Positions 29,558 to 63,886 of a stretch of 64,000 nt of DNA are shown in pieces (the first letter of the stretch is position 1; each line of letters begins with the position of its first letter). Under the pieces are notes generated by a model. It saw only the letters and a program-made list of their open reading frames with translations. It did not search any database and was not told the origin of the DNA. Source of the DNA: an uncultured Candidatus Saccharibacteria bacterium (GTDB lineage Bacteria; Patescibacteriota; Minisyncoccia; Phycocordibacterales; JACNGX01); assembly GCA_964621395.1 (NCBI GenBank), contig CAZULS010000001.1, positions 135,920 to 199,919 on the forward strand, given 5' to 3'. The translations under genes and the position numbers were made by a program.

Positions 29558-29611
29558 TAAGAAGAATACATGTTTCATCATTCCAAACAATTGAAAAAAG
29601 AAAGACGACGG

Positions 29612-30217: not shown

Positions 30218-30220
30218 CAG

Positions 30221-30408: not shown

Positions 30409-30428
30409 TGTAGTATAATAGAAACAAT

Positions 30429-34902: not shown

Positions 34903-35099
34903 CTATTTTGTTGTCATCCCGCACTTGATGCGGGATCTTCCCGAATTACCTTTAGAAACAAGACAGCGAAGATTCCGGGTCACCAGAGCCCCACTTTCAC
35001 CAATGCTGTATATGATAAAACATCTTCCACCCTTTCTTCTATCGTCTACGACCTCTTCATGTACTCAGTGAAAGTGAAGCTCGGCAGGAGCCCGGAATG
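34903..35099. mobile_element. Composite family-A/family-E repeat filling the tpiA-pgk spacer
   Basis: GTCATCCCGCACTTGATGCGGGATC hairpin, then CCAGAGCCCCACTTTCACC ... CAGTGAAAGTGAAGCTCGGCAGGAGCCCGGAATGACA; near-duplicate of 49620-49968. Confidence 0.65.
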
Positions 35100-43603: not shown

Positions 43604-43736
43604 TGTCATTCCGTGCTTGACACGGAATCTAAAAACCAAGGTTGAGCTTTGGTATGTATACCAAAGCTCAACCTTGGTTTTCGAATAACACTCAGAAACA
43701 ATATAGCGGAGATCCCGCATCAAGTGCGGGATGACA
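43604..43736. mobile_element. Family-A MITE containing a 23-bp perfect palindrome (AAACCAAGGTTGAGCTTTGGTAT-GT-ATACCAAAGCTCAACCTTGGTTT, 43631-43678)
   Basis: Read directly. Confidence 0.65.
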
Positions 43737-44657: not shown

Positions 44658-45278
44658 ATGATATCAGGAATTGAAATTATATTTGGTATTGCTGTTTTGA
44701 TTATGTCGGTGATTGCTCATGAGGTGTCGCACGGATATGCCGCCGCGCTTTTGGGAGATCCGACGGCACGTTTGGCAGGGCGATTGTCGCTCAATCCGGT
44801 GAAGCACATTGATCCGGTGGGTTCTATTGTCGTGCCCCTCCTTTCTTACATGCTCGGTGGATTTATTTTCGGATGGGCAAAGCCGGTGCCGTATAATCCG
44901 TATAATCTGAAAAATCAGCGTTTTGGTCCGGCGATTGTTGCTGCGGCAGGGCCGGCTATGAATATTGCCATTGCCATTATCTTTGGTATGTTGGTGCGTT
45001 TTGCCGCTCCGCTCGGTATCGCCAATGAGGCATTTTATTCACTGGCAATTATGATTGTCTTTATTAATGTGCTTTTGGCGCTTTTCAATCTTATCCCTAT
45101 CCCGCCGCTTGATGGCTCCAAAATACTCTCCGCATTTCTCCCCGGCAGATATCTCTCTTTCATGGCATCGCTTGAGCAATACTCCTTCTTTGCTGTTATT
45201 ATCTTCATCCTTCTCTTCTGGCAATCTATTGTGCCGGTGGTATACGGCATTACGTGGTTTTTGGTGGGAGGCGCTTAG
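44658..45278 (+). CDS. Site-2 protease family (peptidase M50) membrane metalloprotease
   Basis: HEVSHGYAA (HExxH) in the first TM helix; LNPVKHIDPVGS downstream motif. Confidence 0.75.
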   Translation: MISGIEIIFGIAVLIMSVIAHEVSHGYAAALLGDPTARLAGRLSLNPVKHIDPVGSIVVPLLSYMLGGFIFGWAKPVPYNPYNLKNQRFGPAIVAAAGPAMNIAIAIIFGMLVRFAAPLGIANEAFYSLAIMIVFINVLLALFNLIPIPPLDGSKILSAFLPGRYLSFMASLEQYSFFAVIIFILLFWQSIVPVVYGITWFLVGGA

Positions 45279-45446
45279 GGGTACGAAGTACGAATGAGTA
45301 CGAACATACGAAGACAGCTCGCAGTGAGCTACTTGTTGTCATCCAAAAAACACACGAAGATTCCGCATCAAGTGCGGAATGACAGCAAAAAAGAGTTATA
45401 TGCTGAAAGTCAGACTCGTATGTTCGTATATGTTTGTAGTTCGTAC
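45279..45446. mobile_element. Composite family-B variant (GTACGAA TIRs) enclosing a family-A hairpin
   Basis: GGGTACGAAGTACGAATGAGTACGAACATACGAAG ... CGTATGTTCGTATATGTTTGTAGTTCGTACCC with internal GATTCCGCATCAAGTGCGGAATGACA; sister copy at 53449-53645. Confidence 0.6.
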
Positions 45447-45503: not shown

Positions 45504-45911
45504 ATGCCGACAATCAATCAACTCGTGAAGAAGGGTCGCAAGAAAGTGGAGCGGAAGAATAAAACCGTGGCGCTTTCGCGTGGATTCAACTCCATTGAAA
45601 ACAAGCCGACCTCATTTCCGTCACCGTTTAAGCGCGGTGTGTGTACCAAGGTAACAACCGCAACGCCGAAGAAGCCAAACTCCGCTCTTCGAAAGATTGC
45701 CCGTGTACGTCTTACCAATGGTAATGAGGTGACCGCCTACATCCCCGGCGAAGGACACAATCTTCAAGAACACTCCGTGGTGCTCCTTCGTGGTGGTCGT
45801 GTGAAGGACCTTACCGGTGTGCGGTATACGGTTGTTCGTGGTGTGCTTGATGCCGGTGGTGTTGATAAGCGTAAGAAGACCCGCAGCCGCTACGGTGTGA
45901 AGAAGTCGTAA
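45504..45911 (+). CDS. rpsL: 30S ribosomal protein uS12
   Basis: [14 protein letters not shown] ... [10 protein letters not shown] ... conserved uS12. Confidence 0.95.
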
Positions 45912-45935
45912 TCATTTTTGTTTTCATTTACTTGT

Positions 45936-46406
45936 ATGCGTCATCCGATCAAAAAACGTCCAGAACCGCAGCCTGATTACCGCTACAATTCGGTAAAGGT
46001 AACGAAGTTCATCAATATGCTTATGCGGGGCGGAAAGAAGAGCGTGGCTGAGCGCGTGGTATACGATGCCTTTGATTCCATCAAAAAGCGCGATGAGAAT
46101 GCAAATCCGCTTGAAGTCTTTGAAGCAGCGATTAAGAATGTCGGCCCTTCCATGGAAGTGCGCTCACGTCGTGTGGGTGGTGCCAATTATCAGGTGCCGC
46201 GTCCGGTACAGCCGAATCGTCGCTTGGCTCTGACATTCCGTTGGATTCTCGAAATTGCCCGTAAGAAAAGTGGTAAAGCGATGTCTGAGCGTTTGGCAGA
46301 CGAACTCCTTGCGGCAGCGAAAGGCGAAGGCGATGCAATCGCAAAACGCGACAACATGCACAAGATGGCAGAAGCTAATAAGGCATTTGCTCACTTTGCA
46401 AACTAA
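45936..46406 (+). CDS. rpsG: 30S ribosomal protein uS7
   Basis: [39 protein letters not shown] ...; start moved to MRHP. Confidence 0.95.
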
Positions 46407-46433
46407 CGATAAACGATAAACTCATAAACGATA

Positions 46434-46466
46434 AAAAAGCGCGGGCTAACGCCCGCGCTTTTTTGT
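46434..46466 (+). terminator. Terminator after rpsG (AAAAAAGCGCGGGC-TAAC-GCCCGCGCTTTTTT), preceded by three ACGATAAAC motifs
   Basis: Read directly; it implies rpsG and fusA are transcriptionally uncoupled here. Confidence 0.6.
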
Positions 46467-46487
46467 ATGCCAAAAGCCTTCATTTCG

Positions 46488-46555
46488 TGTCATTCCCAAA
46501 AATATTAAGGTTAAACCTTAATATTGTGATGTCATTCCGAGCTTGACCCGAAATC
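46488..46555. mobile_element. Family-A hairpin repeat pair
   Basis: GTGTCATTCCC ... GTCATTCCGAGCTTGACCCGAAATC. Confidence 0.55.
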
Positions 46556-46647
46556 TAGTTTATAGCTAGGACGGACCTAGCTACGGCCAGCGCTTTTCGC
46601 ACCTTGCATACTACACAAAAAAAGCGGGTCGCTATGGACCCTGCTTA

Positions 46648-47070
46648 TTACGATGGGACAAGTATGCCATTACGTTCAATCTCATCCATTTCCTCCATGA
46701 CTTTTTCAAGCTGAATTTCTTTGTCCTGTCCGAATTCTTTGGTGCTTATACCTTTCCATAGCCATTCCGTTGCGTTTTGGATTTTTTGAAGTCCTTCGAT
46801 TCTTATTTCACGAGATTGTTCAACTCGTTTAAGCTCTATGCGAGTGACCCTTGTAAAGGAGTGGTATGAATTATGCAAAGAATCGTGATTGGCATCTTTG
46901 AAATCAATCATGATATACAGATAGTAGTCAAAACGCCCTTCTGCGAAGACAGGATCGACTTTTTCTGCCCTAATCTCGATTTCATTTTCGGCTGGGTGGA
47001 AGATTTCTTTTTTCGAAACCAAGCACCACTCGTGCTTTTTCAGCAATCTGTAGAGTTCACGAGTATTCAT
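46648..47070 (-). CDS. Hypothetical protein inserted on the opposite strand between rpsG and fusA (weak HicA-like N-terminus)
   Basis: 140-aa ORF; N-terminus MNTRELYRLLKKHEWCLVSKK resembles HicA/YcfA-type toxins but lacks the GSH motif; flanked by family-A hairpins at 46488-46555 and 47296-47323. Confidence 0.35.
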   Translation of the reverse strand: MNTRELYRLLKKHEWCLVSKKEIFHPAENEIEIRAEKVDPVFAEGRFDYYLYIMIDFKDANHDSLHNSYHSFTRVTRIELKRVEQSREIRIEGLQKIQNATEWLWKGISTKEFGQDKEIQLEKVMEEMDEIERNGILVPS

Positions 47071-47367
47071 GAGTTTTTGATTGTTTTGTTTTTGAGAATA
47101 TAACTTTTAGAGCGTTTACTGGTATTACTATACATTCGTCAGAAATTTTAGCAAGCCCCGCATGTACCTTTAGGTACATGCGGGGCAGTGGAATTGTCGC
47201 TTTTTGCTTGCAAAAAGCCCATCACTCCAGTATAGTATGCCCACTAGCCAGCACGGCTTTTTGTTTTTGAGAGTTGTCGTTAGGGTGTACTCCTTAAGAT
47301 TCCCGATCAAGTCGGGAATGACAACATATCTTTTATCGTTATTATTTAATCGTTTATCATTCATTAT

Positions 47368-49518
47368 ATGCAGCGAGATTATCCATTGGAGAAAGTGCGC
47401 AATTTCGGTATTATCGCCCACATCGACGCGGGGAAGACCACCGTTTCAGAGCGTATTCTCTTTTATACCGGCGTCTCACACAAAATCGGTGAGGTGCACG
47501 AAGGTGAGGCGGTCATGGACTGGATGGAACAGGAACGCGAGCGCGGTATCACCATTACGTCCGCGGCGACAACCTGTTTCTGGGTGCCGACACACGACGA
47601 TGCCTCTGATGCTTCCAAGAAATATCGATTCAATATTATCGACACTCCGGGGCACGTCGACTTTACCGTGGAGGTGGAGCGATCCCTTAAGGTGCTCGAC
47701 GGTGGTGTTGTCGTCTTCGACGGCGTTGCCGGCGTAGAGCCTCAGTCTGAGACCGTGTGGCGCCAGGCAGATAAATACAAAGTGCCGCGCATGTGTTTCA
47801 TCAACAAGCTCGATCGTACCGGCGCTTCTTTTGAGCGTTCATACAAGTCGATTTTGGATCGTCTGACCAAAAAGGCGGTTCGTTTCCAGATTCCGATGGG
47901 TGAAGAGGAGTACCACCAAGGCGTGGTAGACCTTCTCAAGATGAAAGCATACTTCTTCGAGGGTGAGATGGGTAATACCGTGCGCGAAGATGAGATTCCG
48001 GCAGAATATAAAGACGACGCCGAAACATATCACAATGAGCTCATCGAAGCGGTGGTACAGCACGATGAAGAAGCAATGAATCGTTTCCTCGAAGGGGAGA
48101 CAATTTCCGTGGAAGAGCTTCAAAAAATCGCGCGTAAGGCGGTGATTGCAAACGAACTCGTACCGGTCTTCACAGGTACGGCACTCAAAAACAAAGGCGT
48201 GCAGCTTCTCCTAAACGCGGTGGTAGATTATCTGCCGTCTCCGCTTGATGTTCCGGCAATTTCCGGAGAAAATCCCAAGACGGGTGGAAAGGAAGAGCGT
48301 CATTCTTCCGACGACGAGCCGTTTGCAGCGCTTGCCTTCAAGCTCGCTGTGGATCCGTTTGTTGGTCAGCTCACATTCTTCCGCGTGTATTCCGGAACAC
48401 TCGAAGCCGGATCATATGTGTACAATGCCCGCACGGGAAATAAAGAGCGCGTGGGCCGTATTTTGCGCATGCACTCCAATGATCGCGAAGAGGTGAAGAA
48501 GGTGTATGCCGGTGAAATCGCGGCGGCTGTTGGTTTGAAAGACGTGCGCACGGGAGACACCTTGTGTGATGAAGGGCATCCGGTGCTTCTGGAAGGAATT
48601 GAATTCCCTGAGCCGGTAGTGTCGCTCAAGATTGAGCCGAAGACCAAAGCCGATCAGGAGAAGATGGGCATTGCGCTTTCTCGTTTGGCGCAGGAAGACC
48701 CGACATTTAAGGTTTCCACCGATCAGGAAACGCTTGAGACAATCGTTTCAGGTATGGGTGAGCTTCACCTCGACATTATCGTGGATCGTATGAAGCGCGA
48801 ATTTAAGGTGGAGGCAAATGTGGGTCAGCCGCAGGTGGCATATCGCGAAACAATCACCGCACCGTCGGAATCTGAAGTGAAATACATCAAGCAGACGGGT
48901 GGTCGCGGTCAGTATGGTCATGTGAAGATTCGCATGAAGCCCATTGAGAAACTCTCCGAAGAAGAGATTGCGGATTTGCCCAAGACAGTGAAGCGTTCGG
49001 AAGGATTCGAATTCGTAAATTCAATCAAGGGAGGGGTTATTCCGCAGGAATATATTCCGGCTTGTGAGAAAGGATTTAAGGAAGCGATGGAGAAGGGTAT
49101 TGTTGCCGGCTTCCCCTTGGCGGATGTGTCGGTAGAGCTGTATGATGGTTCGTACCATGAAGTGGACTCCTCTGAAGTTGCCTTCAAGATCGCGTCCTCA
49201 CAGGCATTTCAGGAAGCTGCGCAGAAAGCAAAGCCGGTGGTCCTTGAGCCGATGATGAAGGTGGAAGTGGTGACTCCCGATCAATTCATGGGAGACATTA
49301 CCGGAAACCTCTCTTCCAAGCGCGGACAAGTGGAAGGCACCGAAGACCGCGGTATGAACAAGGTGGTGCGTGCCGCCGTGCCTCTTTCGGAGATGTTTGG
49401 GTACATGACCCAGCTTCGAAGCATGACCGAAGGTCGCGCAAGCTTCACGATGGAATTTGCGGAATACGCAATCGTACCGCAGAATATCGCGGATGAGATT
49501 GTGGCGAAAAGGAAGTAA
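47368..49518 (+). CDS. fusA: Elongation factor G
   Basis: 716 aa; [22 protein letters not shown]-domain motifs. Confidence 0.95.
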
Positions 49519-49619
49519 AAAGAGGAGATTAGGAGATTAAAGATTAAAAAATTAAAAAAACTATAAACGGTAAACGATACACTAAAAGTCGCCCTGACGG
49601 GCGACTTTTAGTTTGCTTA

Positions 49620-49968
49620 CATGTACTGCTTGTCATCCTGTTTAATTTTCCCTCTGCCATCTCGCACCACCACTGTCATCCCGTCCAACCCCACATTGGT
49701 GAGCACGGAAATGTATATATTCAACCCAGCAACAATGCCACTGGCGAGTGCCATGTACTTTTCAGAATCATACATGTGGGGCTGGAATGCGGGATCTCCC
49801 CGAATAACCTCTGGGAAAAATATGTCGAAGATTCCCAATCACCAGAGCCCCACTTTCACCAACATAGTCTGTAATAAAACATTTTTCGTTTCTTCTTCTA
49901 TCGTTCACGGCTTCTTAATGTATTCAGTGAAAGTCGAGCTCGGCAGGAGTTGGGAATGACAAAAAATA
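49620..49968. mobile_element. Composite family-A/family-E repeat block downstream of fusA
   Basis: Contains TGTCATCC hairpin halves, GTGGGGCTGG, and CCAGAGCCCCACTTTCACC ... CAGTGAAAGTCGAGCTCGGCAGGAGTTGGGAATGACA (near-duplicate of 34903-35099). Confidence 0.6.
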
Positions 49969-50074
49969 GGGTAAAGAAAAGGCGGCGCGGTCCTAAAGGA
50001 CCGCGCCGCTTTGCGTGGTGGGGTAATAAAAAAGCCCCGAAAATCTCGGGGCCTTTAGAGTAGCTTCGTGTAAC

Positions 50075-51100
50075 TTAATACGAACTACCTGCGTGTTTCA
50101 TCTCTCCCGCCTTTGCAAACTCAAGAGTTGCCGACAAATCATCGGGTTCAAGTATGTTTGCAAGAAGGTCCTGCATAACACAGTAACCCTTCCATACATC
50201 CTCGATGGTGTCGAATTGGTGCTGTGTCCAGTCATACCGGAGGAGTGTTTCCATGACTTTGACCCATGTTGCCAGCACTTCATTGGCATCGGCATTTTCT
50301 ACCACTCCGGAGTGTTTGACCGCAGTAAGGCCATGCATGAGTTCCATTACACCGGCGAGATTTCTCTCGTTTCCGACGCTGTGCATTGAGATGTTGAGAC
50401 CACAACCGCCGATAAATCCACCGGCATTCCTGACTTCAAAATTACGCCCGTAAAATCCGCCCTCACAGGCGAAATTCGGTGTGAGACCGAATTTGTAACG
50501 GACAAAGAGATTACAGAACGCATGAAGCATGGGAAGAACAGGCAGTTCTGCTCCTCGTCCCATAATGCCGCCAGAAATCGAACGATTGCCAACCTTTATG
50601 CTCCTTACGTTTCCGTTGCCATCATCCGTTACTTCCACAGACAGAACAGGTTTCTCCAGGAGTGGTGCCTTCGACGGCACATGCGGTTCAAAGTCGAGAG
50701 GAGGAGGCTCCATTTCTCCCCCGGTTTTTTCGTAGATATCTTTCAGCAGCCAGTAATCAAGCGTGCTGATTGAATCTCCCCACTCTCGTCCACCAGGGAA
50801 TTTTACATGACAGCTTCCAAGACAGGTGTCTTGGACAACGCCAACTTTTCCATTTATCATGACACGTGTACCGCGCCAATCAAAATGGTATTCGTACTTA
50901 TCAAACAGAGGCATAAAGACCACTGTTTTTTGTACGGAAAGTTCGACATTGTCCGGACCGAACAATTCATCTTTCCGGTAGAAACAATTTTCACACACAG
51001 TACCGATGGTCGGATTTTCACCGGCCCATTTTTTGCTAATGGAACTGCCGCAAACAGGGCACTTCCCCTGTACAAGAGTTACGTTTTTCATGATGTACAC
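50075..51100 (-). CDS. Hypothetical protein with N-terminal zinc-ribbon (CPVCGSS ... CENC), inserted antisense between fusA and tuf
   Basis: 341-aa ORF; two CxxC pairs at the N-terminus; Gly-rich central region (NAGGFIGGCGLN); unassigned. Two terminator hairpins (49978-50014, 50030-50056) downstream on its strand. Confidence 0.4.
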   Translation of the reverse strand: MYIMKNVTLVQGKCPVCGSSISKKWAGENPTIGTVCENCFYRKDELFGPDNVELSVQKTVVFMPLFDKYEYHFDWRGTRVMINGKVGVVQDTCLGSCHVKFPGGREWGDSISTLDYWLLKDIYEKTGGEMEPPPLDFEPHVPSKAPLLEKPVLSVEVTDDGNGNVRSIKVGNRSISGGIMGRGAELPVLPMLHAFCNLFVRYKFGLTPNFACEGGFYGRNFEVRNAGGFIGGCGLNISMHSVGNERNLAGVMELMHGLTAVKHSGVVENADANEVLATWVKVMETLLRYDWTQHQFDTIEDVWKGYCVMQDLLANILEPDDLSATLEFAKAGEMKHAGSSY

Positions 51101-51453
51101 GTTTTCTTTTTGGTGAGAAAAAATATGGTTTCAAATAAAATAACTGCTCGTTTCAGTCTATCATACCATATGTAATATGTCAATACCAGCACCCGCTCCT
51201 TTTTCCTATCCTATAAGCCATAAGCTAAAAGCTATAAGCTCAATTGCGCTTGCGCAAATTCGGCGGCTCTGGTAGGATAGTGGCACCGCATGGCGGGCTT
51301 GTTTTTTCTTGTATGTATTTTTTTGTTTCTAAAAAGCAGAAAAGTATATCATCCAAGTCCATCACGCATTTTATTTATTATCAGGTATAGCTGTTTCTTT
51401 TCGGGCAATGCTCTCGCTTCGAGAAGGAACAGGTATCCAATTCATTCAAACGT

Positions 51454-52647
51454 ATGGCTGATACATTTGATCGCAGCAAGCCGCATGTGAATGTGGGTAC
51501 CCTCGGTCACGTTGACCACGGGAAGACCACATTGACTGCCGGCATCTTGAATGCCCTCGACCTCGCAGGACAGAAGGTCCGCAAAGAGGATGTGAGCGCA
51601 ATCGACAACGCGCCGGAAGAGCGCGAACGTGGTATTACCATTTCGCTCCACCACAGCGAATACGAAACAGAAGCACGTCACTACGCGCACATCGATGCGC
51701 CGGGACACGCCGACTACATTAAAAACATGATCACCGGTGCCGCACAGATGGACGGTGCAATCCTTGTGGTTGCAGCAACCGATGGTGTGATGCCGCAAAC
51801 TCGTGAGCACGTACTCCTTGCAAAGCAGGTGGGCCTTACTCACATGATCGTCTTCATCAACAAGGTAGACATGGTTGATGATGCTGATTTGGTTGAGCTC
51901 GTGGAAGAAGAAATCCGCGAAGTGCTTACCCAGCAGGGCTTTGATGGTGCAAACGCGCCGGTTATCAAGGGCTCCGGCCTTAAAGCAGCGGAAGCAACAT
52001 CTGTTGACGATGAATACGTACAGAAGATTCTTGAGCTCATGAATGCTCTTGATACGTACATTCCGCTTCCGGAACGTCAGACTGACAAGCCGTTCCTTAT
52101 GCCGATTGAGGACATCTTCTCAATTGAAGGACGTGGTACTGTCTGCACCGGTCGTATTGAACGCGGACAGATCAAGGTCGGAGAAGAGGTTGAAATCGTG
52201 GGTATTAAAGATACCGTAAAGACAACCGTGACCGGTATTGAGATGTTTAACAAATCGCTTGAGCAGGGCGAAGCCGGCGACAACGCGGGAATTCTCCTTC
52301 GCGGTACCAAAAAAGAAGATATTCACCGCGGTCAGGTGCTTGCTGCACCGGCAAGTGTTACCCCGCACACCGAATTCGAAGCGGAGGTATACATTCTTAA
52401 GAAAGAGGAAGGTGGTCGTCACACTCCGTTCTTCTCCGGATACAAGCCGCAGTTCTATGTCGGTACAACGGATGTGACCGGCGACGTGACTCTGGCAGAA
52501 GGCGTTGAAATGGTGATGCCGGGCGATACCGTTACCTTCAAAGTGAAGCTTGTAGCACCTGTTGCTCTTGAAGATCAGCAGCGCTTCGCAATCCGCGAAG
52601 GCGGTAAGACCGTTGGTGCCGGTGTGGTAACCAAGGTTATTGCCTAG
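51454..52647 (+). CDS. tuf: Elongation factor Tu
   Basis: 397 aa; [22 protein letters not shown] motifs. Confidence 0.95.
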
Positions 52648-52689
52648 AGCTTGATTACGATTCCCACCGCAAGGTAGGAAGAGTAGAAG

Positions 52690-52812
52690 CTTGTCGGCTG
52701 ACACGTTCGTATGCCGGCTGCAAATCGCTCAAAGCGTCTTGAAGTACGACAGTACTCCCGCGACACTTTTCACGATTTTCGCTCGACATACGGACGTGTC
52801 ACGCACGACATG
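52690..52812. repeat. Partial family-C MITE copy (internal region, no TIRs) downstream of tuf
   Basis: CTTGTCGGCTGACACGTTCGTATGCCGGCTGCAAATCGCTCAAAGCGTCTTGAAGTACGACAGTACTCCCGCG ... aligns with the interior of 17903-18090. Confidence 0.55.
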
Positions 52813-52926
52813 TTAATCGTAACCAAGCTCACAATTCATGTTTGCGTCGCGGTGGAAATCGTGACCAAACTTATTCTCCGGACACCCCTTCTCGAAAGGT
52901 AGGGGCACGTCCGCCCGCTCTGTTCT

Positions 52927-53277
52927 ATGACAGCAACCGAAACACAAAAGAAGAAACGTTCTGAAACGAGCGCGCCGAAACTTCGTATCAAAGTGCGTGC
53001 GTATGAGAACAAAGTGCTTGATGCATCGGTAAAGCAGATTATCGACACGGCGATTCGCTATGATGCGGATATTGCCGGACCGACACCCTTGCCGACATCG
53101 ACAAAGAAGTACACCGTCAATCGCTCCACGTTCGTTCACAAAGACGCGCGAGAGCAGTTCGAAATGCGAGTGCATAAGCGTTTGATCGATATCCTCAATC
53201 CGACCCCTAAGGTCGTTGAGGCATTGACCAATCTCTCACTCCCTTCGGGCGTCAGCGTGGATGTACGCATGATGTAA
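52927..53277 (+). CDS. rpsJ: 30S ribosomal protein uS10 (with short N-terminal extension)
   Basis: LRIKVRAYENKVLDASVKQIIDTA ... GPTPLPT ... conserved uS10. Confidence 0.9.
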   Translation: MTATETQKKKRSETSAPKLRIKVRAYENKVLDASVKQIIDTAIRYDADIAGPTPLPTSTKKYTVNRSTFVHKDAREQFEMRVHKRLIDILNPTPKVVEALTNLSLPSGVSVDVRMM

Positions 53278-53448
53278 TTGAGCAGTATTGCTCGGGTTCG
53301 CGCATTCAATTTGCCCAGCGAAGTGAATGCGCTCTACCCGATCAATGCAAGAAGCGGCGACGGCGGCGCGCAAAGCGCCCCGCCGCAACAACGCGAATCA
53401 TGACATGAATAGATATGTCACGAGCCGCATGTTTTTTGTATTGCATAA

Positions 53449-53645
53449 GGGTACGAACTACGAACATATACGAACATACGGAGACAGTGTCTCGCGACAT
53501 AATATAATTATATCGTCATTCCGCACTTGATGCGGAATCTAGGAGACTCTGTATCTGGATTCCTGGTCAAGCCAGGAATGACAGCAAAAGAGAGTTTCCT
53601 GCTGAAAGTCAGATTCGTATGTTCGTACAAATTCGTAGTTCGTAA
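53449..53645. mobile_element. Composite family-B variant enclosing family-A hairpins, between rpsJ and the inserted minus-strand ORF
   Basis: GGGTACGAACTACGAACATATACGAACATACGGAG ... GTCATTCCGCACTTGATGCGGAATC ... CCAGGAATGACA ... GATTCGTATGTTCGTACAAATTCGTAGTTCGTAAC. Confidence 0.6.
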
Positions 53646-53710
53646 CAGTTCATAACACAAAAAAACCGCACAGCGGCATATGACGAATCATATACATGTG
53701 CGGTCGGGTT

Positions 53711-54037
53711 TCAGAGACCTGTCTCCCTTTTTGCTTTTTTGCCCCACGGCCAAAGAAAGCCGTGAAATCCATAAAAGCCAAAGTCCACAAGCGCCGCAAT
53801 GAGTCCAATGGGACCCGAGAAGAGACGAATAAATTCAGATGCTTCCCACCATAAATTATTCTCTTTCTTGACTGTTTCCACGGCTTTTTTCAAACGATTG
53901 TCATTTGGAAAAGAAGAAGTTAAGTCATCAAGAAAAGTTTTTCTTCTTACAGAACTTGCAAAAGAGAATCCTGCTCCCAATACACCACAGGCCAGCCATA
54001 GTAAGAGGAGAAGTATCGAAAACAATGTTATATTCAT
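53711..54037 (-). CDS. Hypothetical small membrane protein inserted antisense between rpsJ and rplC
   Basis: 108-aa ORF; N-terminal TM/signal (ITLFSILLLLLWLACGVLGAGF) and C-terminal hydrophobic segment. Confidence 0.35.
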   Translation of the reverse strand: MNITLFSILLLLLWLACGVLGAGFSFASSVRRKTFLDDLTSSFPNDNRLKKAVETVKKENNLWWEASEFIRLFSGPIGLIAALVDFGFYGFHGFLWPWGKKAKRETGL

Positions 54038-54253
54038 CGGAGTAAATTTTTTGTGTTCAAAAGTTCAAAAAACGCCAAGCTAATTCTAACAGTAATATAT
54101 TTCCTATTTAGAGTCAAACATATTTTTTGTCTCTCATCCCAAATTACCCAATTCCTATTTTCTACCGTGACCGAGCATGACTTGTCATGCTGTAGGCACT
54201 CCTAGTTTCCAATCCACCCAGTTGACTTTTCAAATCAAAAAAGGTAGTATCTG

Positions 54254-54420
54254 GAAACGTATAATTCCGAATTACGAATGCACGCGAATATACGAATGAG
54301 TGAAATAGCGGATGTGCCTTCGAAGTATCCTCGGAACATATATAACAATAAGAAGAGAAATATAAAAATGCACGATATATTGAGTATTCGTATATTCGTA
54401 ATAAATTCGTAATTCGTAAC
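54254..54420. mobile_element. Family-B MITE variant directly upstream of rplC (right TIR ends 3 nt before the ATG)
   Basis: ATTACGAATGCACGCGAATATACGAATGAG ... GTATTCGTATATTCGTAATAAATTCGTAATTCGTAAC. Confidence 0.65.
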
Positions 54421-54423
54421 TTT

Positions 54424-55035
54424 ATGAAATTCATCCTCGGCACAAAAGAAGAGATGACACAGATTTTCCAGGAAGATGGACGTGTCGTACCGGTAACAGC
54501 AATCGCTGCCGGTCCTGTTGTGGTGACACAAGTGAAGAATGCTGATACCGATGGATACAGTGCTGTGCAGGTTGGCTTTGGTACACAGAAAGAATCTCGC
54601 TTGGGCAAGTCTGTTCTTGGGCACACCAAAGATCTTGGTGCATTTAAAACACTTCGCGAATTCCGCCTGGAGGATACGGCAGACATGGAAAAAGGGAAGA
54701 CTATCGACGTGTCTATCTTTGAGCCGGGTGAGGAAATCGAAGTGAGCGGAATTTCGAAAGGAAAAGGTTTCCAAGGTGTGGTGAAGCGTCATGGCTTCAA
54801 AGGCGGTCCTCGTTCACACGGTCAGAAGCACTCTGAGCGTAAGCCGGGTTCTATCGGATCAACCGGTCCGCAGCGCGTGCTCAAAGGCTTGCGCATGGCA
54901 GGACGCATGGGTTCGGATCGCGTAACGGTGAAGAATCTTTCAGTGGTTGCCGTCGACGCGGAAAAAGGGCTCCTCTTTGTGAAAGGTGCCGTTCCCGGAC
55001 GTCGCGGCACATTGCTCGAAGTCCGCACCGCCTAA
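54424..55035 (+). CDS. rplC: 50S ribosomal protein uL3
   Basis: Conserved uL3 N-terminus and KGKGFQGVVKRHGF motif. Confidence 0.95.
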   Translation: MKFILGTKEEMTQIFQEDGRVVPVTAIAAGPVVVTQVKNADTDGYSAVQVGFGTQKESRLGKSVLGHTKDLGAFKTLREFRLEDTADMEKGKTIDVSIFEPGEEIEVSGISKGKGFQGVVKRHGFKGGPRSHGQKHSERKPGSIGSTGPQRVLKGLRMAGRMGSDRVTVKNLSVVAVDAEKGLLFVKGAVPGRRGTLLEVRTA

Positions 55036-55089
55036 GAGCGCACGGAGTGCGCGTTAATCTCCTAACCTTTAACTTCCTAATCTCCTAAT

Positions 55090-55758
55090 ATGGAATCACC
55101 CATCTACAACGAACAAGGAAAAGAAACAGGCAAGCTCACACTTCCTAAGGAAATCTTTGGTTTGCCGAAAAATGACGACCTCGTGCACCAGGTGGTTGTA
55201 TCGATGCAGTCAAATGCACGCACCAATGTGGCGCATGCAAAAGACAGAAGCGAAGTACGAGGCGGTGGTCGCAAGCCCTGGAAGCAGAAGGGTACCGGTC
55301 GTGCGCGTCATGGTTCGCGCCGTTCACCGATTTGGATTGGTGGTGGCGTTACCCACGGACCTTCCAATGAAAAGAATTTCGATAAGAAAATCAATCGCAA
55401 GATGGCACGCAAGGCGCTCCATACGGTGCTTTCCGGTAAGATGAAAGACGGTGAGGTGATGTTTGTTGACATCTTCTCCACTGAAGAGCCGAAAGCTTCA
55501 TGGGCAAAGGGTGTTCTTCAAGCACTCGGAAGCGTGAAAGGATATGAGGCGATTGCGGAGCGCAAGAACAATGCCGTGCTCATTGCCGTGGGCGAGAAAA
55601 ACGATGCAGTATTCAAGAGCTTTGGAAACTTCGGCAACGTTGCCATCATGGAAGCACGCAATGTAAATCCTGTGGAAGCTCTTTCATACAAGCACATCGT
55701 ATTTGTGGGCCCCGAGGTATGTGTTGCACACCTTACTCGTGAAAAAGGAAATGAATAA
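55090..55758 (+). CDS. rplD: 50S ribosomal protein uL4
   Basis: RGGGRKPWKQKGTGRARHGS signature; TAATCTCCTAA tandem motif directly upstream. Confidence 0.9.
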   Translation: MESPIYNEQGKETGKLTLPKEIFGLPKNDDLVHQVVVSMQSNARTNVAHAKDRSEVRGGGRKPWKQKGTGRARHGSRRSPIWIGGGVTHGPSNEKNFDKKINRKMARKALHTVLSGKMKDGEVMFVDIFSTEEPKASWAKGVLQALGSVKGYEAIAERKNNAVLIAVGEKNDAVFKSFGNFGNVAIMEARNVNPVEALSYKHIVFVGPEVCVAHLTREKGNE

Positions 55759-55776
55759 TTCAGATTCTCGTTAACT

Positions 55777-56211
55777 ATGAGCATTCTCTCTTCCAAAACA
55801 AAAGAGTCTCAGTCGAAAAAGACGACCGACCAAGGGTCTAAGGCAAAAGCTCCGGCAAAGCCGAAAGCAAAAGCTGCATCAAAGAGTGCGCAGCCCAAGC
55901 CTAAGTCACAGAAAGCTGCGACCGCTCCCAAGAAAGGTGCATATGCACACGTGCTTCTTGCACCGCGTATTACAGAGAAGGCAGCTCTTTCAAGCGAACG
56001 TGGCGCGTATGTCTTTACGGTTGCACCAGAGGCGACAAAGGTTGATGTGAAGAAGGCGTTTTTCCAGGTATACGGTATTCTGCCGAGAAAAATCACCATG
56101 ACCCGCATCCCGAAGAAGAACACGTTCATTCGCGGAAGAAAGGGTACGAAAGGTGGTGGTAAGAAAGCGGTTGTATATCTTCCCGAAGGACAGAAGATTG
56201 AAATTGTGTAA
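55777..56211 (+). CDS. rplW: 50S ribosomal protein uL23 with approx 50-aa K/A-rich N-terminal extension
   Basis: The C-terminal 90 aa match uL23 (LLAPRITEKA ... VDVKKAFFQVYGI ...). Confidence 0.85.
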   Translation: MSILSSKTKESQSKKTTDQGSKAKAPAKPKAKAASKSAQPKPKSQKAATAPKKGAYAHVLLAPRITEKAALSSERGAYVFTVAPEATKVDVKKAFFQVYGILPRKITMTRIPKKNTFIRGRKGTKGGGKKAVVYLPEGQKIEIV

Positions 56212-56215
56212 ATCA

Positions 56216-56322
56216 TCGAATTACAAATGAAATACGAATATACGAATTACAAATATATGTGTTAATGATAATAAAGAGCATGATTTGTAATTTGTATATT
56301 TGTATCAATTCGTAATTTGTTT
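56216..56322. mobile_element. Miniature family-B derivative (ACGAAT/ACAAAT-rich, approx 107 bp) between rplW and rplB
   Basis: CGAATTACAAATGAAATACGAATATACGAATTACAAATA ... TATTTGTATCAATTCGTAATTTG. Confidence 0.5.
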
Positions 56323-56328
56323 ATAGCC

Positions 56329-57168
56329 ATGAAAAAATATAAGCCGACAACAGCATCTCGCAGACACATGAGCACGGTGACCTACCGAGGCGTGCTTTCC
56401 GGCGACAAGCCACACAAACCGCTTGTGAAAGGAAAGAAGCGTTCTGTTGGTCGTAACAATGCCGGACGTATCACCACTCGTCATAAGGGAGGCGGTCACA
56501 AGCGTTTGCAGCGTGATATCGATTTTACATACGATAAGAAAAACATTATCGCGCGCGTGGAGACGATTGAATACGATCCAAACCGCTCAGGTTTCATTGC
56601 TCTCGTGTGTTATCGTGATGGTGAACGTCGCTATATCCTTGCTCCGCAGAGTGTTGTGGTGGGAGATGAATTCGTGGTATCCGAAGAGGCGGAAGTGAAG
56701 GTGGGAAATCGCATGCCCCTTGGTAAGATTCCTGCCGGTACGTTTGTATATAATGTTGAATTAAAGCCGGGTGCCGGCGCACGCTTGGCACGCTCCGCCG
56801 GATCATTCCTTGAAGTGGTTGCAAACGACGAAGGCTACACCCAGGTGAAGATGCCGTCGGGAGAAATTCGCAAGATTATCGCCACCGCATGGGCGTCAAT
56901 CGGTGAAGTATCCAATCAAGAGCACAAGCTTGTGACTATTGGAAAAGCGGGTCGTAGCCGCTGGATGGGTAAGCGCCCGACGGTGCGTGGTACGGCCATG
57001 AACCCTGTTGATCACCCCCATGGTGGTGGTGAAGGACGCCAAGGACGCGGACGCCGTCGCGCAACCTCTAAATGGGGTAAGGAGACCGGAAAGGGACACA
57101 AGACACGTCGTGCAAAGAAATATTCAAACAATCTCATCGTTTCTCGCAGAAAGAGCAAAAAGAAGTAA
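56329..57168 (+). CDS. rplB: 50S ribosomal protein uL2
   Basis: MKKYKPTTASRRHMS ... GGGEGRQGRGRRRA conserved uL2; start moved 4 codons into the track ORF. Confidence 0.95.
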   Translation: MKKYKPTTASRRHMSTVTYRGVLSGDKPHKPLVKGKKRSVGRNNAGRITTRHKGGGHKRLQRDIDFTYDKKNIIARVETIEYDPNRSGFIALVCYRDGERRYILAPQSVVVGDEFVVSEEAEVKVGNRMPLGKIPAGTFVYNVELKPGAGARLARSAGSFLEVVANDEGYTQVKMPSGEIRKIIATAWASIGEVSNQEHKLVTIGKAGRSRWMGKRPTVRGTAMNPVDHPHGGGEGRQGRGRRRATSKWGKETGKGHKTRRAKKYSNNLIVSRRKSKKK

Positions 57169-57204
57169 AAAAACGATAAACGATAAACTTTTCAACGATA
57201 AAAC

Positions 57205-57243
57205 AAAAAGCCGCGCAGCTCTCAAAGGATGCGCGGCTTTTGC
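57205..57243 (+). terminator. Terminator after rplB (AAAAAGCCGCGCAGC-TCTCAAAGGA-TGCGCGGCTTTTGCC), preceded by ACGATAAAC motifs
   Basis: Read directly. Confidence 0.55.
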
Positions 57244-57332
57244 CCCCCCTCACACTTTTTCCTCAAAATATGTTATATTGGGAAACACTCATTTTTAATT
57301 TCCTAATATTTAACTTCTAATCTCCTACCACA

Positions 57333-58436
57333 ATGACCGACGACCCTTCCCCTAGTGCACGCTTCATGTTCGCCCTCTATGGCGGGCTTATTGTTCTTTT
57401 TGGCATTCTCTTCTCTGTTGATACCAACATCGCCCTTGTTGCACTTCTCGTGCTGTTTTCGGGACTTTTTTCCGGTCTTACCATTGGTATTCTCGGGCTT
57501 TCTCCCGAAGATCTCAAAATTGAAGCCGATTTGGGCTCGCGCTTGGCAAAGAAGATTCTTCCGGTGCGGCAGAAGGGGAATCTCATTCTCTCCACATTGC
57601 TCGTCTCCAATGTTATCGTCAACTCCGTTCTCTCTATTTTTCTTTCCGACGTCGCTTCAGGTGTTATCGGCGGTATTATCGCCATTGCGCTCATTACCGT
57701 CTTCGGTGAAATTTTGCCGCAATCAATCGCAATCAAGCATGGTCTTAAAATGGGATATATGTCGCTGCCGCTTTTGTATGTGGTGATGACCGTGCTGTAT
57801 CCGATTACTCGCCCTGTGGCATGGGCGCTCGACAAAGCAATCGGTAAGGAATTGCCGGCAATCTATTCCAAGCGCAAACTCTCAAAGATTCTTGAGCACG
57901 TGGAGGACCAGGGAATTATCGATGAAGATGAAGAACAGATTCTTCTCGGCGGCGTGTCGTTTTCGGAGAAATATGTTGGCGATGTAATGACACCAATCGA
58001 CAAGGTCTTTCTCTTGCCCGACACCACACTTCTTTCGGGAGAAAAACTTCGGGAAATATATGAAAGCGGACACTCACGTATCCCTATCTACGATGAAAAT
58101 ATTCACGATATTGTCGGTATGTTGTATGTGAAGAAGCTTATTGCCATTAATCCCGACGACAATACACCGGTTGTAGATGTGATGAGTGACGATGTGCCCA
58201 AGGTGATGGCGAGCGAGCATCTCGATGCGGTTTTGAATAAGTTTAAGCTCAAAAAGAAGCACCTGTTTGCGGTGTATGCCACCGATTCCGACGCCGCCGG
58301 CATCATCACGCTCGAAGACATTATGGAAGAAATCCTCCAAGACGAGATTGTAGACGAGACGGATTTTAAGGAACGAGTTGAGAGTAAAAGAGGGAAGAGT
58401 CGAGAGCGTGGTTATTCGAGTACAGTGAAGAAATAG
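57333..58436 (+). CDS. CNNM/CorC-family transporter (DUF21 transmembrane domain + CBS pair), inserted between rplB and rpsS
   Basis: 367 aa; four N-terminal TM helices (DUF21), then CBS pair (DVMTPIDKVFLL ... IVGMLYVKKL ... AGIITLEDIMEEIL); TAATCTCCTAC motif upstream. Confidence 0.8.
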   Translation: MTDDPSPSARFMFALYGGLIVLFGILFSVDTNIALVALLVLFSGLFSGLTIGILGLSPEDLKIEADLGSRLAKKILPVRQKGNLILSTLLVSNVIVNSVLSIFLSDVASGVIGGIIAIALITVFGEILPQSIAIKHGLKMGYMSLPLLYVVMTVLYPITRPVAWALDKAIGKELPAIYSKRKLSKILEHVEDQGIIDEDEEQILLGGVSFSEKYVGDVMTPIDKVFLLPDTTLLSGEKLREIYESGHSRIPIYDENIHDIVGMLYVKKLIAINPDDNTPVVDVMSDDVPKVMASEHLDAVLNKFKLKKKHLFAVYATDSDAAGIITLEDIMEEILQDEIVDETDFKERVESKRGKSRERGYSSTVKK

Positions 58437-58547
58437 ACAAGTTTCGAGTATCGAGTATCGAGTTGCGAGAGTCGCGCGCTACCGCGCGCGACGATACAAA
58501 CTAAAAAACTCAAAAGCGCGACTTACGCCGCGCTTTTGGAATTGTAC

Positions 58548-58576
58548 TTGACACAAAATCCATATCGTGATAGCAT
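58548..58576 (+). promoter_or_regulatory. Near-consensus sigma70-type promoter TTGACA-N17-TAGCAT
   Basis: TTGACAcaaaatccatatcgtgaTAGCAT read directly, downstream of two terminator hairpins and approx 70 nt upstream of the 58647 mini-ORF and rpsS. Confidence 0.5.
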
Positions 58577-58646
58577 ACTATGCGTAGTGGTTATTTTGTA
58601 AAAGACGATCAAAATCGTTTATTCTATAAAAAGAAAACGAAAGAAA

Positions 58647-58856
58647 ATGAAAAACAGCGCTTTTGTGATCTGGATGATAGGGTACCCCATGTATCATATC
58701 CTCGCTGACTATCTCCATTTTCTTATGGAGAAGCCCATCGAAGATCCGACGAATTGGGGACTTGTCATTATTTTTGCATTTTGGGTTTTTGTCGGCTGGT
58801 TGGTTTATGAGCCGAAAGAAAGCAAGAAAGTCGAAAATAAAGAAAATGAGGACTGA
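58647..58856 (+). CDS. Hypothetical small membrane protein
   Basis: 69-aa ORF with two hydrophobic helices. Confidence 0.3.
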   Translation: MKNSAFVIWMIGYPMYHILADYLHFLMEKPIEDPTNWGLVIIFAFWVFVGWLVYEPKESKKVENKENED

Positions 58857-59086
58857 CCTGTTCTGTTTATCTTTATCCCAAAAAGCTGCCTTCCGGGGCA
58901 GCTTTTTATGTGGAATTGGTTTTTGTGTTTCGCGCGGCGTGATTCTTCATTCATAATTCTTAATTCTCAGCCGCGAATGGTTCTCTGCCGTGCTCGCACG
59001 GCAGAGAACCATTCGCGGCTGTTGACTTCTCCCCGGCTATCTGCTAGGATACTGCAACGAGTGTGTGCTCGACTTTTGTTTTATAT

Positions 59087-59425
59087 ATGACACGATCGCT
59101 GAAGAAAGGTCCGTATGTGGACGAAAAATTGCTCAAGAAAATCGCCGGAAAGAAGCCGGCGGATGTTGGCGTGATTACAACATGGGCACGCGCAAGCCAA
59201 ATTTCTCCGGAAATGGTAGGTTTCAAGTTTGGTGTGCACAATGGCCGTAAACACATTGAGGTGTTGATATCCGAAGACATGGTAGGACATCGTTTGGGTG
59301 AATTCTCCCCGACAAAGACCTTCCATCGTCACGGTGGTAAGATGCAGAAAGAGCTTGAGCAGAAGAAGAAAGAAGCGGAAATCGCTGCAGCAAAAGCCGC
59401 TAAGGCCGCTGCCGACAGTAAGTAG
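59087..59425 (+). CDS. rpsS: 30S ribosomal protein uS19 with K/A-rich C-terminal extension; stop codon TAG is the first triplet of a family-D MITE
   Basis: [19 protein letters not shown] ... [17 protein letters not shown] conserved; the track ORF starts 8 codons upstream. Confidence 0.9.
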
Positions 59426-59620
59426 AACCTGTCTCACTGAAAAATATATGATAACCACAACTCTTCATTCATAAGCTGCGCTTGGCAGCTCTCGCACCCA
59501 CATTGCGGCTGTGCCTCGTCTCTCAACCTCACCGTACGACAGTACGCTTCGGTCTCCGAGACGTCGGCTCACTCGCAATGTGGGCACGAGAACAAGCCAT
59601 TTTCGGTGAGAAAGGTTCTA
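59423..59620. mobile_element. Family-D MITE between rpsS and rplV (TAGAACCTGTCTCACTGAAAAA ... CATTTTCGGTGAGAAAGGTTCTA)
   Basis: Internal sequence homologous to 23871-24069; the 5' TAG doubles as the rpsS stop. Confidence 0.7.
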
Positions 59621-60110: not shown

Positions 60111-60170
60111 AGAGCCACGTAGCGGCGACCCTTAATCTCCTAATTTCCTAACTTACTAATCTCCTAACAT

Positions 60171-61565: not shown

Positions 61566-61811
61566 ATGGCAGATACTACACAAAAAATAATCAAGCGCCT
61601 GGAGGGAACTGTTGTTTCAGATGCAATGGACAAGACAGTGACCGTTCTCGTGGACCGCTTTGTAAAGCACCCGAAATACGGCAAGTTTTACACGCGTTCG
61701 AAGAAGTACAAGGCACATGACCCGGAGAATGCTCATAAGAAAGGGGATCGTGTGACCATCGAATCGTGTCGCCCGATTTCAAAAGACAAAGCATTCCGCG
61801 TCGTTGAGTAA
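61566..61811 (+). CDS. rpsQ: 30S ribosomal protein uS17
   Basis: [44 protein letters not shown] ... [16 protein letters not shown]. Confidence 0.9.
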
Positions 61812-61966
61812 ATTACGAATTACGAATAACGCGAATATACGAATACACAATACAGTTTCTGAGAACAATTATCCTGTCATTCATACAAAAGCGGAGATCC
61901 CGCATCACCCACGCCCCAGTTTTCAAGAAAGAGGAAAACTGAGCGGGGCAAGAGTGCGGGATGACA
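61812..61966. mobile_element. Family-B left half (AATTACGAATTACGAATAACGCGAATATACGAATACACAAT) + family-A hairpin (TGTCATTC ... GTGCGGGATGACAG) inserted between rpsQ and rplN
   Basis: Read directly; followed by AAGCTCAAAGCTATAAGCTAT motif (61997-62025). Confidence 0.6.
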
Positions 61967-62034
61967 GAGGACAGAAGGAGAGCCGCGTAGCGGCGATTCC
62001 TAAAAGCTCAAAGCTATAAGCTATTACCCAAACC

Positions 62035-63808: not shown

Positions 63809-63886
63809 TGTCATTCCGCACTTGATGCGGAATCTTCATTGTTTTGTTTCTTTTTGTTAAGATTCTGAGTCGAGCTCAGAATGACA
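63809..63886. mobile_element. Family-A hairpin-ended MITE (TGTCATTCCGCACTTGATGCGGAATC ... GATTCTGAGTCGAGCTCAGAATGACA)
   Basis: Read directly. Confidence 0.65.

Follow-up and report, generated by a model that had tools for sequence, protein, structure and literature searches.

The str-S10 ribosomal protein cluster of a Paceibacteria genome appears to be re-wired into self-promoted units separated by four gene-accepting spacers

The str-S10-spc cluster is the textbook case of a gene order frozen by selection, and ribosomal-protein phylogenies, like the binning of contigs from uncultured bacteria, are built on it. We analyzed this cluster in a 64,000-nt stretch of contig CAZULS010000001.1 (the window; positions refer to it unless a contig is named), whose host, a bacterium with a tiny genome, belongs to the Paceibacteria within the Patescibacteria, or Candidate Phyla Radiation (CPR). 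Four junctions of the cluster, rpsG/fusA, fusA/tuf, rpsJ/rplC and rplB/rpsS, hold non-ribosomal genes. Our preferred reading, to which we assign a probability of about 0.68, is that the cluster has been re-wired into self-promoted units, that the four spacers between them serve as permissive landing pads with a fast turnover of cargo genes, and that the repeats found beside several of these genes belong to a genome-wide population. The evidence for it comprises the order of the genes, their terminators and conserved promoter-like blocks, recurrence of the same junctions in relatives with a turnover of their cargo, and the distribution and indels of the repeats.

The map of open reading frames (ORFs) and the Pfam assignments place rpsL (45504-45911), rpsG (45936-46406), fusA (47368-49518), tuf (51454-52647), rpsJ (52927-53277), the run of rplC, rplD, rplW and rplB (54424-57168) and rpsS (59087-59425), followed by ribosomal genes onward to rplE, on the plus strand. 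The 961-nt rpsG/fusA spacer carries orf140 on the minus strand (46648-47070); the 1935-nt fusA/tuf spacer carries orf341, a minus-strand gene for a zinc-ribbon protein (50075-51091, 338 amino acids from the likely ATG start at 51091); the 1146-nt rpsJ/rplC spacer carries orf108, also on the minus strand (53711-54037); and the 1918-nt rplB/rpsS spacer carries two plus-strand genes, one for a protein with CNNM and CBS domains by Pfam (57333-58436) and, 3' of it, orf69 (58647-58856). This agrees with an earlier reading of the same letters, the initial annotation, which had placed non-ribosomal ORFs at these four junctions. The short spacers and the lack of internal terminators that characterize the classical contiguous str and S10 arrangement are not found here; the median spacer of the window is 182 nt, and its non-coding share is 21%. 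The initial annotation had also called the ORFs foreign, which base composition supports weakly for the three small ORFs (GC 0.40-0.41 in orf140, orf108 and orf69, versus ~0.50 in the ribosomal genes and 0.467 over the whole window) and does not support for orf341 (0.478) or the CNNM gene (0.473), whose GC is unremarkable.

For comparison, the elongation factor EF-G of the window is 96% identical to that of locus L091, 87% to L092, 85% to L093, a metagenome-assembled genome (MAG) named Candidatus Yonathbacteria, and 80% to both L215 and L217; the best GTDB species representative reaches 78%. Terminators and promoters were called from consensus and conservation, and are predictions from sequence. 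The scan returned 48 terminator-like sites, versus 22.3 ± 5 in shuffled sequence. Strong predicted terminators follow rpsG (46433-46464, bidirectional, A6-stem-T6, ΔG −27 kcal/mol), fusA (49581-49612, plus strand, ΔG −23.3) and rplB (57206-57241, plus strand, ΔG −21.5), at the three places where the initial annotation had put them, and that of rpsG is conserved in L093, where the blastn match spans it. Each inserted gene has a terminator of its own as well: orf140 at 46626-46641 plus a T run (minus strand), orf341 a twin pair at 49979-50012 and 50031-50058 (minus strand), orf108 within the element 53660-54037 (minus strand, ΔG −22), the CNNM gene at 58510-58539 and orf69 at ~58880-58907 (both plus strand).

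Together with promoter-like blocks, these sites would divide the cluster into at least five units, each with its own putative sigma-70-type promoter and three of them ending in a strong intrinsic terminator, so that the separately promoted and terminated units proposed in the initial annotation stand as a prediction. All five are on the plus strand. Unit 1, rpsL-rpsG (45504-46406), would start from TTGCGT-17-TATAGT, 42 nt upstream of rpsL, a pattern kept in L092, L093, L215 and L217. Unit 2 consists of fusA and its terminator (47368-49612), preceded by a TTGCAA-17-TATAGT block (47208-47236) that continues with a weak leader hairpin and U tract to 47269; TTGCAA or TTGCAT-17-TATAGT, the short hairpin and the T tract align among the window, L091, L092 and L093, whose upstream genes are all different. 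Unit 3, tuf-rpsJ (51250-53277), begins with TTGCGC-17-TAGGAT (51250-51278) and a leader hairpin with a U tract, and its promoter block, GCTCTGGTAGGATA, is identical between the window and L093. Unit 4, rplC-rplD-rplW-rplB (54222-57241), has the promoter-like sequence TTGACT-17-TAGTAT (54222-54250), conserved in L093, and a leader of ~170 nt with TACGAAT repeats. Unit 5, rpsS onward (its start lies at 58968-59425), has TTGACT-17-TAGGAT (59022-59050), again with a leader hairpin and U tract; the pattern TTGACT/TTGACA-16/17-TAGGAT/TAAGAT is shared by the window, L093, L217 and also L215, whose rplB/rpsS spacer of 125 nt is free of cargo. Since such blocks persist in relatives with different cargo or with no cargo at all, the predicted unit boundaries would predate the genes now lying between them.

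Several of the inserted genes look like self-contained cassettes by the same kind of evidence. The orf140 cassette spans 46620-47154, with a promoter-like TTGCTA-16-TATAGT on the minus strand (47154-47127), and the orf341 cassette spans 49979-51183, with TTGACA-17-TAGACT on the same strand (51183-51155). In front of orf69, the TTGACA-17-TAGCAT promoter recognized in the initial annotation was found at 58548-58576 (plus strand), with an upstream TG. Two perfect palindromes without T runs lie next to such blocks, one of 15 bp (47155-47186, ΔG −30) between the divergent orf140 and fusA promoters, and one of 26 bp (58968-59021, ΔG −53) that abuts the −35 box of the rpsS promoter and could be an operator or a barrier against read-through from orf69. 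A weak GC hairpin of 3-5 bp followed by a U tract (consensus about GGCUUUUUGUUUU) immediately follows the −10 box in the promoters of fusA, tuf, rpsS and orf69 (47237-47269, 51279-51310, 59051-59086 and 58577-58600, respectively). It is conserved across L091-L093, L215 and L217, in the last two also after the rpsL promoter, and could act as a shared leader, an attenuator or a 5' stabiliser that coordinates the separated units.

To place the four junctions in a wider context, the proteins of the window were mapped onto 80 loci around EF-G from species representatives and onto contigs of closer relatives, with a close set of 24 Paceibacteria loci (EF-G at least 68% identical) and a comparison set of 25 non-CPR loci. 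In the close set, rpsG/fusA is expanded in 12 of 22 loci, fusA/tuf in 19 of 20, rpsJ/rplC in 5 of 14 and rplB/rpsS in 8 of 11, versus 0 of 25, 2 of 23, 1 of 11 and 0 of 11 non-CPR loci. None of 11 other junctions is expanded in any of the 6-21 close loci available for each; the non-CPR counts for these are not comparable, and the apparent expansions at rplD/rplW and rpsS/rplV in non-CPR loci proved to be a tblastn artefact (divergent L23 and L22 proteins went undetected) with no real gaps. From this recurrence, the four interrupted junctions of the window are clade-wide hotspots. Beside gaps of 0.4-7 kb, full separation is also seen, in relatives with tuf or rpsS more than 10 kb away.

The cargo, meanwhile, changes from genome to genome. 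Among the gap ORFs of 37 loci, none clustered with the cargo of the window, and the synteny comparison that the initial annotation had proposed as a check against an ancient, fixed arrangement found lineage-specific cargo, with no relative carrying the same genes except for a homolog of orf140 in L093. At rpsG/fusA, L091 has an RHH antitoxin and a PemK toxin upstream of fusA (L091 281-901), L092 a protein with a Tad4-like (type I Thoeris inhibitor) domain (L092 9129-9836; PF25186, E 3e-22), and L093 three copies of a HEAT-repeat gene together with duplicated 3' ends of rpsG and four small ORFs; the same junction is empty in L215 (334 nt) and tight in L217 (8 nt). A TPR protein fills a junction among L215 and L217, and the other junctions there are empty or tight. 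In L093, fusA and tuf are separated by 352 nt without a gene and the DNA matches the window again on either side, so that this locus effectively would represent the empty site of the 1.7-kb block 49567-51243 that contains orf341, while the ORFs at rpsJ/rplC and rplB/rpsS differ from those of the window. The toxin-antitoxin pair and the Tad4-like gene are of types typical of mobile elements, here within a CPR ribosomal cluster. The triplication in L093 (L093 3289-7862) repeats in tandem a 2137-bp unit in which the final 207 nt of rpsG and the rpsG terminator are joined to the 494-amino-acid HEAT-repeat gene, which itself contains 96-nt internal repeats; an integrase was considered for this gene beside the duplicated rpsG ends and ruled out by its HEAT repeats.

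The initial annotation had described each inserted ORF as bracketed by miniature inverted-repeat transposable elements (MITEs). The main repeat concerned, family A, is a 32-nt unit, TGTCATTCC-NNN-CTTGA-NNN-GGAATC (in general form TGTCATYCC-N3-CTTGA-N3-GGRATC), with an 8-bp stem, an invariant 5' tail TGTCAT (GTCAT) and an invariant loop C-T-x-G-A. Five of the eight stem pairs covary (97.7% of the cells are paired and 24 cells are changed on both sides, reached in 0 of 500 shuffles), and a covariance model recovers 16 full copies in the window, all intergenic, with E values from 1e-10 to 1e-13. The window contains at least six inverted doublets (70-190 nt), and metagenome loci contribute many more. 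Those at 21285-21369, 43604-43736, 53514-53583 and 63809-63886 start with TGTCATTCC and end with GGAATGACA, and thereby have the terminal inverted repeats (TIRs) of a MITE, but the flanks of 10 family A elements share no direct repeat that would mark a target-site duplication. The MITE label is an interpretation that fits the termini and not the flanks. Tailed, short, imperfect and extragenic palindromes that form inverted pairs with a short spacer are what defines repetitive extragenic palindromic (REP) sequences and their doublets (REPINs), and family A has these properties.

The brackets themselves are complete at orf140, one-sided at orf341 and at orf108, where the hairpin composite lies on one side, and absent at rplB/rpsS, where no family A unit was found in the gap. 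To the left of orf140 lie a truncated unit, TGTCATTCCCAA, with a palindrome at 46501-46525 (together 46488-46525, plus strand) and, 3' of it, a full unit (46528-46559, plus strand); to the right, a minus-strand unit (47294-47325) sits inside a 59-nt insertion. This insertion (47272-47330), in the likely 5' untranslated region (UTR) of fusA, downstream of the conserved promoter and upstream of the start codon, is absent in L091, which keeps the promoter; the right-hand unit therefore represents an independent, later insertion and not the end of a composite element. The comparisons with L091 and L093 give no sign of flanking units and interior moving as a block, as a composite transposon would. 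On one side of orf341 lies a composite non-coding repeat of 331 nt (49631-49961), bounded by TGTCATCC...GGGAATGACA and homologous to 34912-35102 (78% over 175 nt), in which the loop of a unit at 49674 is split by a nested palindromic element of ~117 nt with ends CCARCCCCACAT; the ORFs called inside this repeat are probably spurious, and at the site after fusA L091 has a 95-nt two-hairpin element versus the 331 nt of the window. On one side of orf108, a composite repeat of the same family as 45273-45445 (53443-53644) consists of TACGAA-rich inverted arms of ~40 nt round an inverted hairpin doublet (53512-53543, plus strand; 53554-53585, minus strand), and the second side has TACGAAT-type repeats (54257-54301 and 54386-54428) and no others. 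Family A units are present in L091 and L092, and none occurs in L093 or in 40 other Paceibacteria loci in which the cluster is interrupted in the same way. Each kb of non-coding sequence contains 1.24 units on average within the cluster, versus 1.04 elsewhere in the window.

Outside these genomes, family A occurs in at least 120 unrelated metagenome contigs (JGI) with GC contents of 31-65%, usually as an inverted doublet whose second hairpin has the form GGATTCCCGCTTTCGCGGGAATGACA; it is a cross-phylum, non-autonomous element with a patchy distribution. No recurrent transposase-like ORF family was found in 80 metagenome loci that carry it (L095-L174), and no RAYT transposase was noticed in the loci examined, namely the 64-kb window and the fragments of relatives. 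REP sequences and REPINs are mobilised by RAYT transposases (Bertels and Rainey 2011, PMC3116915, PMC3337134). Family A resembles them in its 32-nt unit, compensatory 8-bp stem, invariant tail and loop, extragenic location, inverted doublets and lack of a target-site duplication; it differs in that REPIN-RAYT systems are described as mostly vertical within a lineage, whereas family A is spread over the metagenome contigs and patchy among close relatives. We found no published description of family A in the library searched, a full-text search with the hairpin sequence returning primers alone. The repeat also generates spurious ORFs, such as the peptide VIPGLTRNP...CGMT read from 53508-53660.

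A second point of comparison is provided by the Correia elements and dRS3 of Neisseria, small palindromic intergenic repeats that lie near or inside transcription units and can bring promoter-like hexamers. Likewise, the family A end GGAATGACA provides an ATGACA −35-like box 16 nt before TATTAT (47318-47345). The core ATTCC-N-GGAAT may be similar to dRS3 (ATTCCC-N8-GGGAAT). In contrast to Correia elements, family A has neither a TA duplication nor the 26-nt Correia TIR.

One element of the cluster has the structural features of a MITE. It occupies 198 nt between rpsS and rplV (59423-59620), with 21-nt TIRs, TAGAACC(T/A)GTCTCACTGAAAA (TAGAACCAGTCTCACTGAAAA), TA on both flanks and no ORF, and it has a second copy of 199 nt with TA on both flanks (23871-24069) and a solo end (20452-20482). 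MITEs that duplicate TA are of the IS630/Tc1-mariner-like type, which this element and its copy resemble in their TIRs, flanks and lack of an ORF; it is distinct in its two full copies and one solo end in the window, and in being unassociated with any inserted gene. The stop codon of rpsS is the first TAG of this MITE, and the rpsS/rplV junction of L093 measures 22 nt. TACGAA-armed elements occur at 45273-45445, at 53443-53644 and once per spacer at 25.8-30.4 kb. In this last region, each ~200-nt spacer (25836-30430) of an array of five co-oriented non-ribosomal genes (24089-31832) contains a TACGAAT-rich repeat copy; gene arrays with repeats in their spacers are therefore a feature of the genome as a whole. 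A repeat of ~125 nt (~52690-52815), 83% identical to 17950-18080, lies in the tuf/rpsJ spacer, which is 279 nt in the window versus 39 nt in L093; its other copy is located upstream of a RelE/ParE-like toxin-antitoxin pair (18181-18698). Similarly, the rpsQ/rplN spacer (61812-62034) is 223 nt in the window versus 76 nt in L093, and it is filled by a TACGAAT repeat (61801-61852), a 92-nt TGTCAT...ATGACA element (61875-61966) and an ATAAGCT repeat (61982-62022).

Furthermore, the UTRs are built of degenerate tandem motifs of 7-8 nt. TAATCTCC stands immediately upstream of the rplD, rpsC and CNNM starts, and its complement, GGAGATTA, after fusA; TAAACGA is found 3' of rpsG, rplB and fusA and reversed before fusA, TACGAAT before rplC, and ATAAGCT and TCGAGTA occur as well. 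These motifs were located at 55070-55091, 57300-57332, 60133-60170, 49523-49560, 46407-46432 and 57170-57205, with further sites at 47330-47367, 54386-54423, 51210-51240 and 58440-58470. No Shine-Dalgarno-like GGAGG precedes the starts that carry them. In Rfam, a tRNA-Gly is the sole match at gathering thresholds, and the sub-threshold matches in 45-64 kb are all driven by terminators.

The homology and structure searches suggested in the initial annotation were informative in part: they uncovered a family for orf341, and yielded no informative fold for it and two relatives without a domain match for orf140. orf341 is certainly a real gene. It has 28 homologs with 40-66% identity, and the conserved C11, C14, C33 and C36 form two family-wide CxxC pairs at the N-terminus, the hallmark of a zinc ribbon. 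Its AF2 model has a pLDDT of 88, and the best Foldseek match to the PDB has an E value of 0.24; Pfam gave just a sub-threshold DUF7573, and PADLOC, PHROGs, a profile search of PDB sequences and the viral contigs of IMG/VR gave nothing. The homologs from five other organisms lie in five unrelated neighbourhoods. A 257-amino-acid ORF without a Pfam match directly precedes an orf341 homolog in two unrelated contexts (L086 165-938 and L089 2935-3708) and may be a conserved partner gene of the family; it is absent beside orf341 in the window. For orf140, a search of 1.84e9 representatives returned two relatives, of which the one in L093 (141 amino acids, 36% identity, E 1e-17) is likewise on the minus strand at the same place directly upstream of fusA; no match was obtained in Pfam, PADLOC, PHROGs or the PDB. 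Its N-terminus, ELYRLLKKHEW, is reminiscent of a HicA toxin, an assignment that was dropped for want of profile support, and its single-sequence AlphaFold model (pLDDT 50.7) was not used. orf108 is an ORFan, with no homolog besides itself in 5.8e9 clusters, and because of this its status as a gene depends on its own terminator and two predicted hydrophobic segments. The 57333-58436 protein has the domain order of a standard CNNM/CBS transporter, a CNNM/DUF21 transmembrane domain (PF01595, E 5.6e-34, residues 36-200) followed by CBS (PF00571, E 4e-9, residues 281-335), and the Pfam scan reported no CorC_HlyC C-terminal domain.

Four other explanations for the interrupted cluster have to be weighed. 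That chimeric joins in assembly or binning put unrelated DNA into the cluster is extremely improbable: the source is a metagenome-assembled contig and the repeats at the junctions are classic points of misassembly, but rpsJ-tuf-orf341 and the start of the adjoining repeat block recur at 100% identity in two independent Logan assemblies from other runs (L001 and L002), so the arrangement is not a chimera; moreover, relatives from other studies are expanded at the same junctions, and there are no GC steps at the joins of the inserted DNA. The initial annotation had favoured a second explanation, namely that each foreign ORF was brought in, or its insertion promoted, by MITE-like elements, and that intact operons were broken in this way. 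The inverted units around orf140 (46528, plus; 47294, minus), the repeat blocks adjoining orf341 and orf108, and the true TA-flanked MITE at rpsS/rplV are all in line with it, and the 59-nt indel relative to L091, the nested insertion at 49674 and the size difference after fusA in L091 mark the hairpin units as mobile or indel-prone. We nevertheless consider it very unlikely. Three of the four breaks and a homolog of orf140 occur in L093, which has no hairpin unit at all; the pair around orf140 delimits no single element, its right-hand member lying downstream of the conserved fusA promoter and being absent in L091; repeats adjoin just one side of orf341 and orf108 and are missing at the CNNM block; the doublets lack target-site duplications; and repeat density is equal outside the cluster, whose promoter-like blocks are older than the cargo. 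For orf140, this explanation is already largely refuted.

Recruitment of the inserted genes for translation, with a gain from the expression context of the cluster, appears similarly improbable. The CNNM protein could act as a Mg2+/Co2+ transporter for the Mg2+ homeostasis of the ribosome and the zinc-ribbon protein as a ribosome-associated factor; the CNNM gene is co-oriented with rplB and has no clear promoter, the orf341 family is well conserved in a manner typical of purifying selection, and the orf140 homolog of L093 keeps its position next to fusA. Against this, no cargo besides orf140 was found at these junctions in any relative, the homologs of orf341 are scattered over unrelated contexts, orf108 has no homolog, and of the five ORFs, three run antisense to the cluster and are set apart by terminators of their own. 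Active targeting would make the junctions or the terminator hairpins sites of recombination, at which an unlinked enzyme exchanges terminator-bounded cassettes in the manner of an integron or island; the four junctions would then be actively used safe-harbour sites of Paceibacteria for toxin-antitoxin genes, anti-defence genes such as the Tad4-like one, and genes for orphan membrane and zinc-ribbon proteins, with the recombination system recognising terminator hairpins or GGAGATTA-type modules. The recurrence of the four junctions with cassette-like cargo (toxin-antitoxin, Tad4-like and ORFan genes), each with its own hairpin terminator, points in this direction, as do the 84-97% identical terminators of three small cargo genes downstream of the L093 triplication, the 24-nt direct repeat whose copies, 529 nt apart, flank the orf140 homolog there, the terminator after PemK in L091, which is 97% identical to the rpsG terminator of the window, and a module of the GGAGATTA repeat plus terminator that recurs after different genes. 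We regard both the general and the safe-harbour form as unlikely, given that no integrase, recombinase or transposase was found in any locus examined, that terminators are short and GC-rich, so that their similarity may be convergent, that the cargo is heterogeneous in orientation and size, and that the larger gaps, which exceed 10 kb at the upper end, resemble ordinary separation between flanking genes.

We therefore return to the re-wired cluster with permissive spacers. Under this reading, which concerns a Yonathbacteria-like lineage of the Paceibacteria, the spacers would tolerate extra DNA because co-transcription over the four boundaries is no longer needed; small cassettes of promoter, ORF and terminator, often antisense, would be gained, replaced and lost at a high rate; and these spacers, like all others in the genome, would be colonised by non-autonomous repeats (the REP/REPIN-like units, the TACGAA-armed elements and the TA-flanked MITE) that are probably passengers of intergenic space and not vehicles of the genes. 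We infer that tolerance, in other words relaxed selection, rather than active targeting lies behind the hotspots. Several points weigh against this reading. The −35 hexamer of the putative tuf promoter is weak (3 of 6 matches), the structures 3' of rpsJ and tuf lack T runs and leave the end of unit 3 undefined, and the CNNM gene has no convincing promoter of its own and may rely on transcripts that pass the rplB terminator. Neither L215 nor L217 has the fusA promoter block, so the fusA boundary arose within the clade and is not ancestral to all of it. The relatives are mostly MAG contigs, in which an apparent absence may in some cases reflect a break in the assembly. Activity of the promoter-like blocks and termination at the predicted terminators are what we infer from consensus and conservation, and tolerance by itself does not account for the choice of precisely these four junctions as boundaries.

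A related process, invasion-separation, has been described in Gammaproteobacteria and Bacilli, in which genes are first inserted between adjacent translation units whose flanks later separate (PMC8046335, PMC6735719). Both of its states are seen here, as interrupted gaps and as relatives with tuf or rpsS more than 10 kb off. However, in those groups the breaks fall between the classical operons of a cluster that stayed stable very long, whereas here they lie inside str and S10 (after S7, EF-G, S10 and L2), are far more frequent within one CPR class, and show turnover of cargo among genomes with 85-96% identical EF-G. Our literature search found no earlier description of interrupted ribosomal protein operons in CPR/Patescibacteria. 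In archaea, S10 follows EF-1alpha in a str-like cluster, apart from L3-L4-L23-L2 (see also PMC10833476). The predicted tuf-rpsJ unit separate from rplC resembles that arrangement; it differs in being a derived state in a bacterial lineage, and L2/S19 is not known to be a break point in archaea.

For annotators and binning tools, non-ribosomal genes and repeat-induced contig breaks are to be expected inside this marker block in Paceibacteria. Should the safe-harbour explanation turn out to be true, an integron-like exchange of accessory genes would operate within the cell's most conserved gene cluster. As it stands, one entire CPR class repeatedly breaks into the cluster at these four internal sites and exchanges accessory genes there, some of them of toxin-antitoxin and anti-defence type. 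The repeated opening at four positions suggests that co-transcription would be dispensable when each piece keeps its own promoter, and the Paceibacteria may therefore provide a natural system for asking how stoichiometric expression of ribosomal proteins persists without operon linkage.

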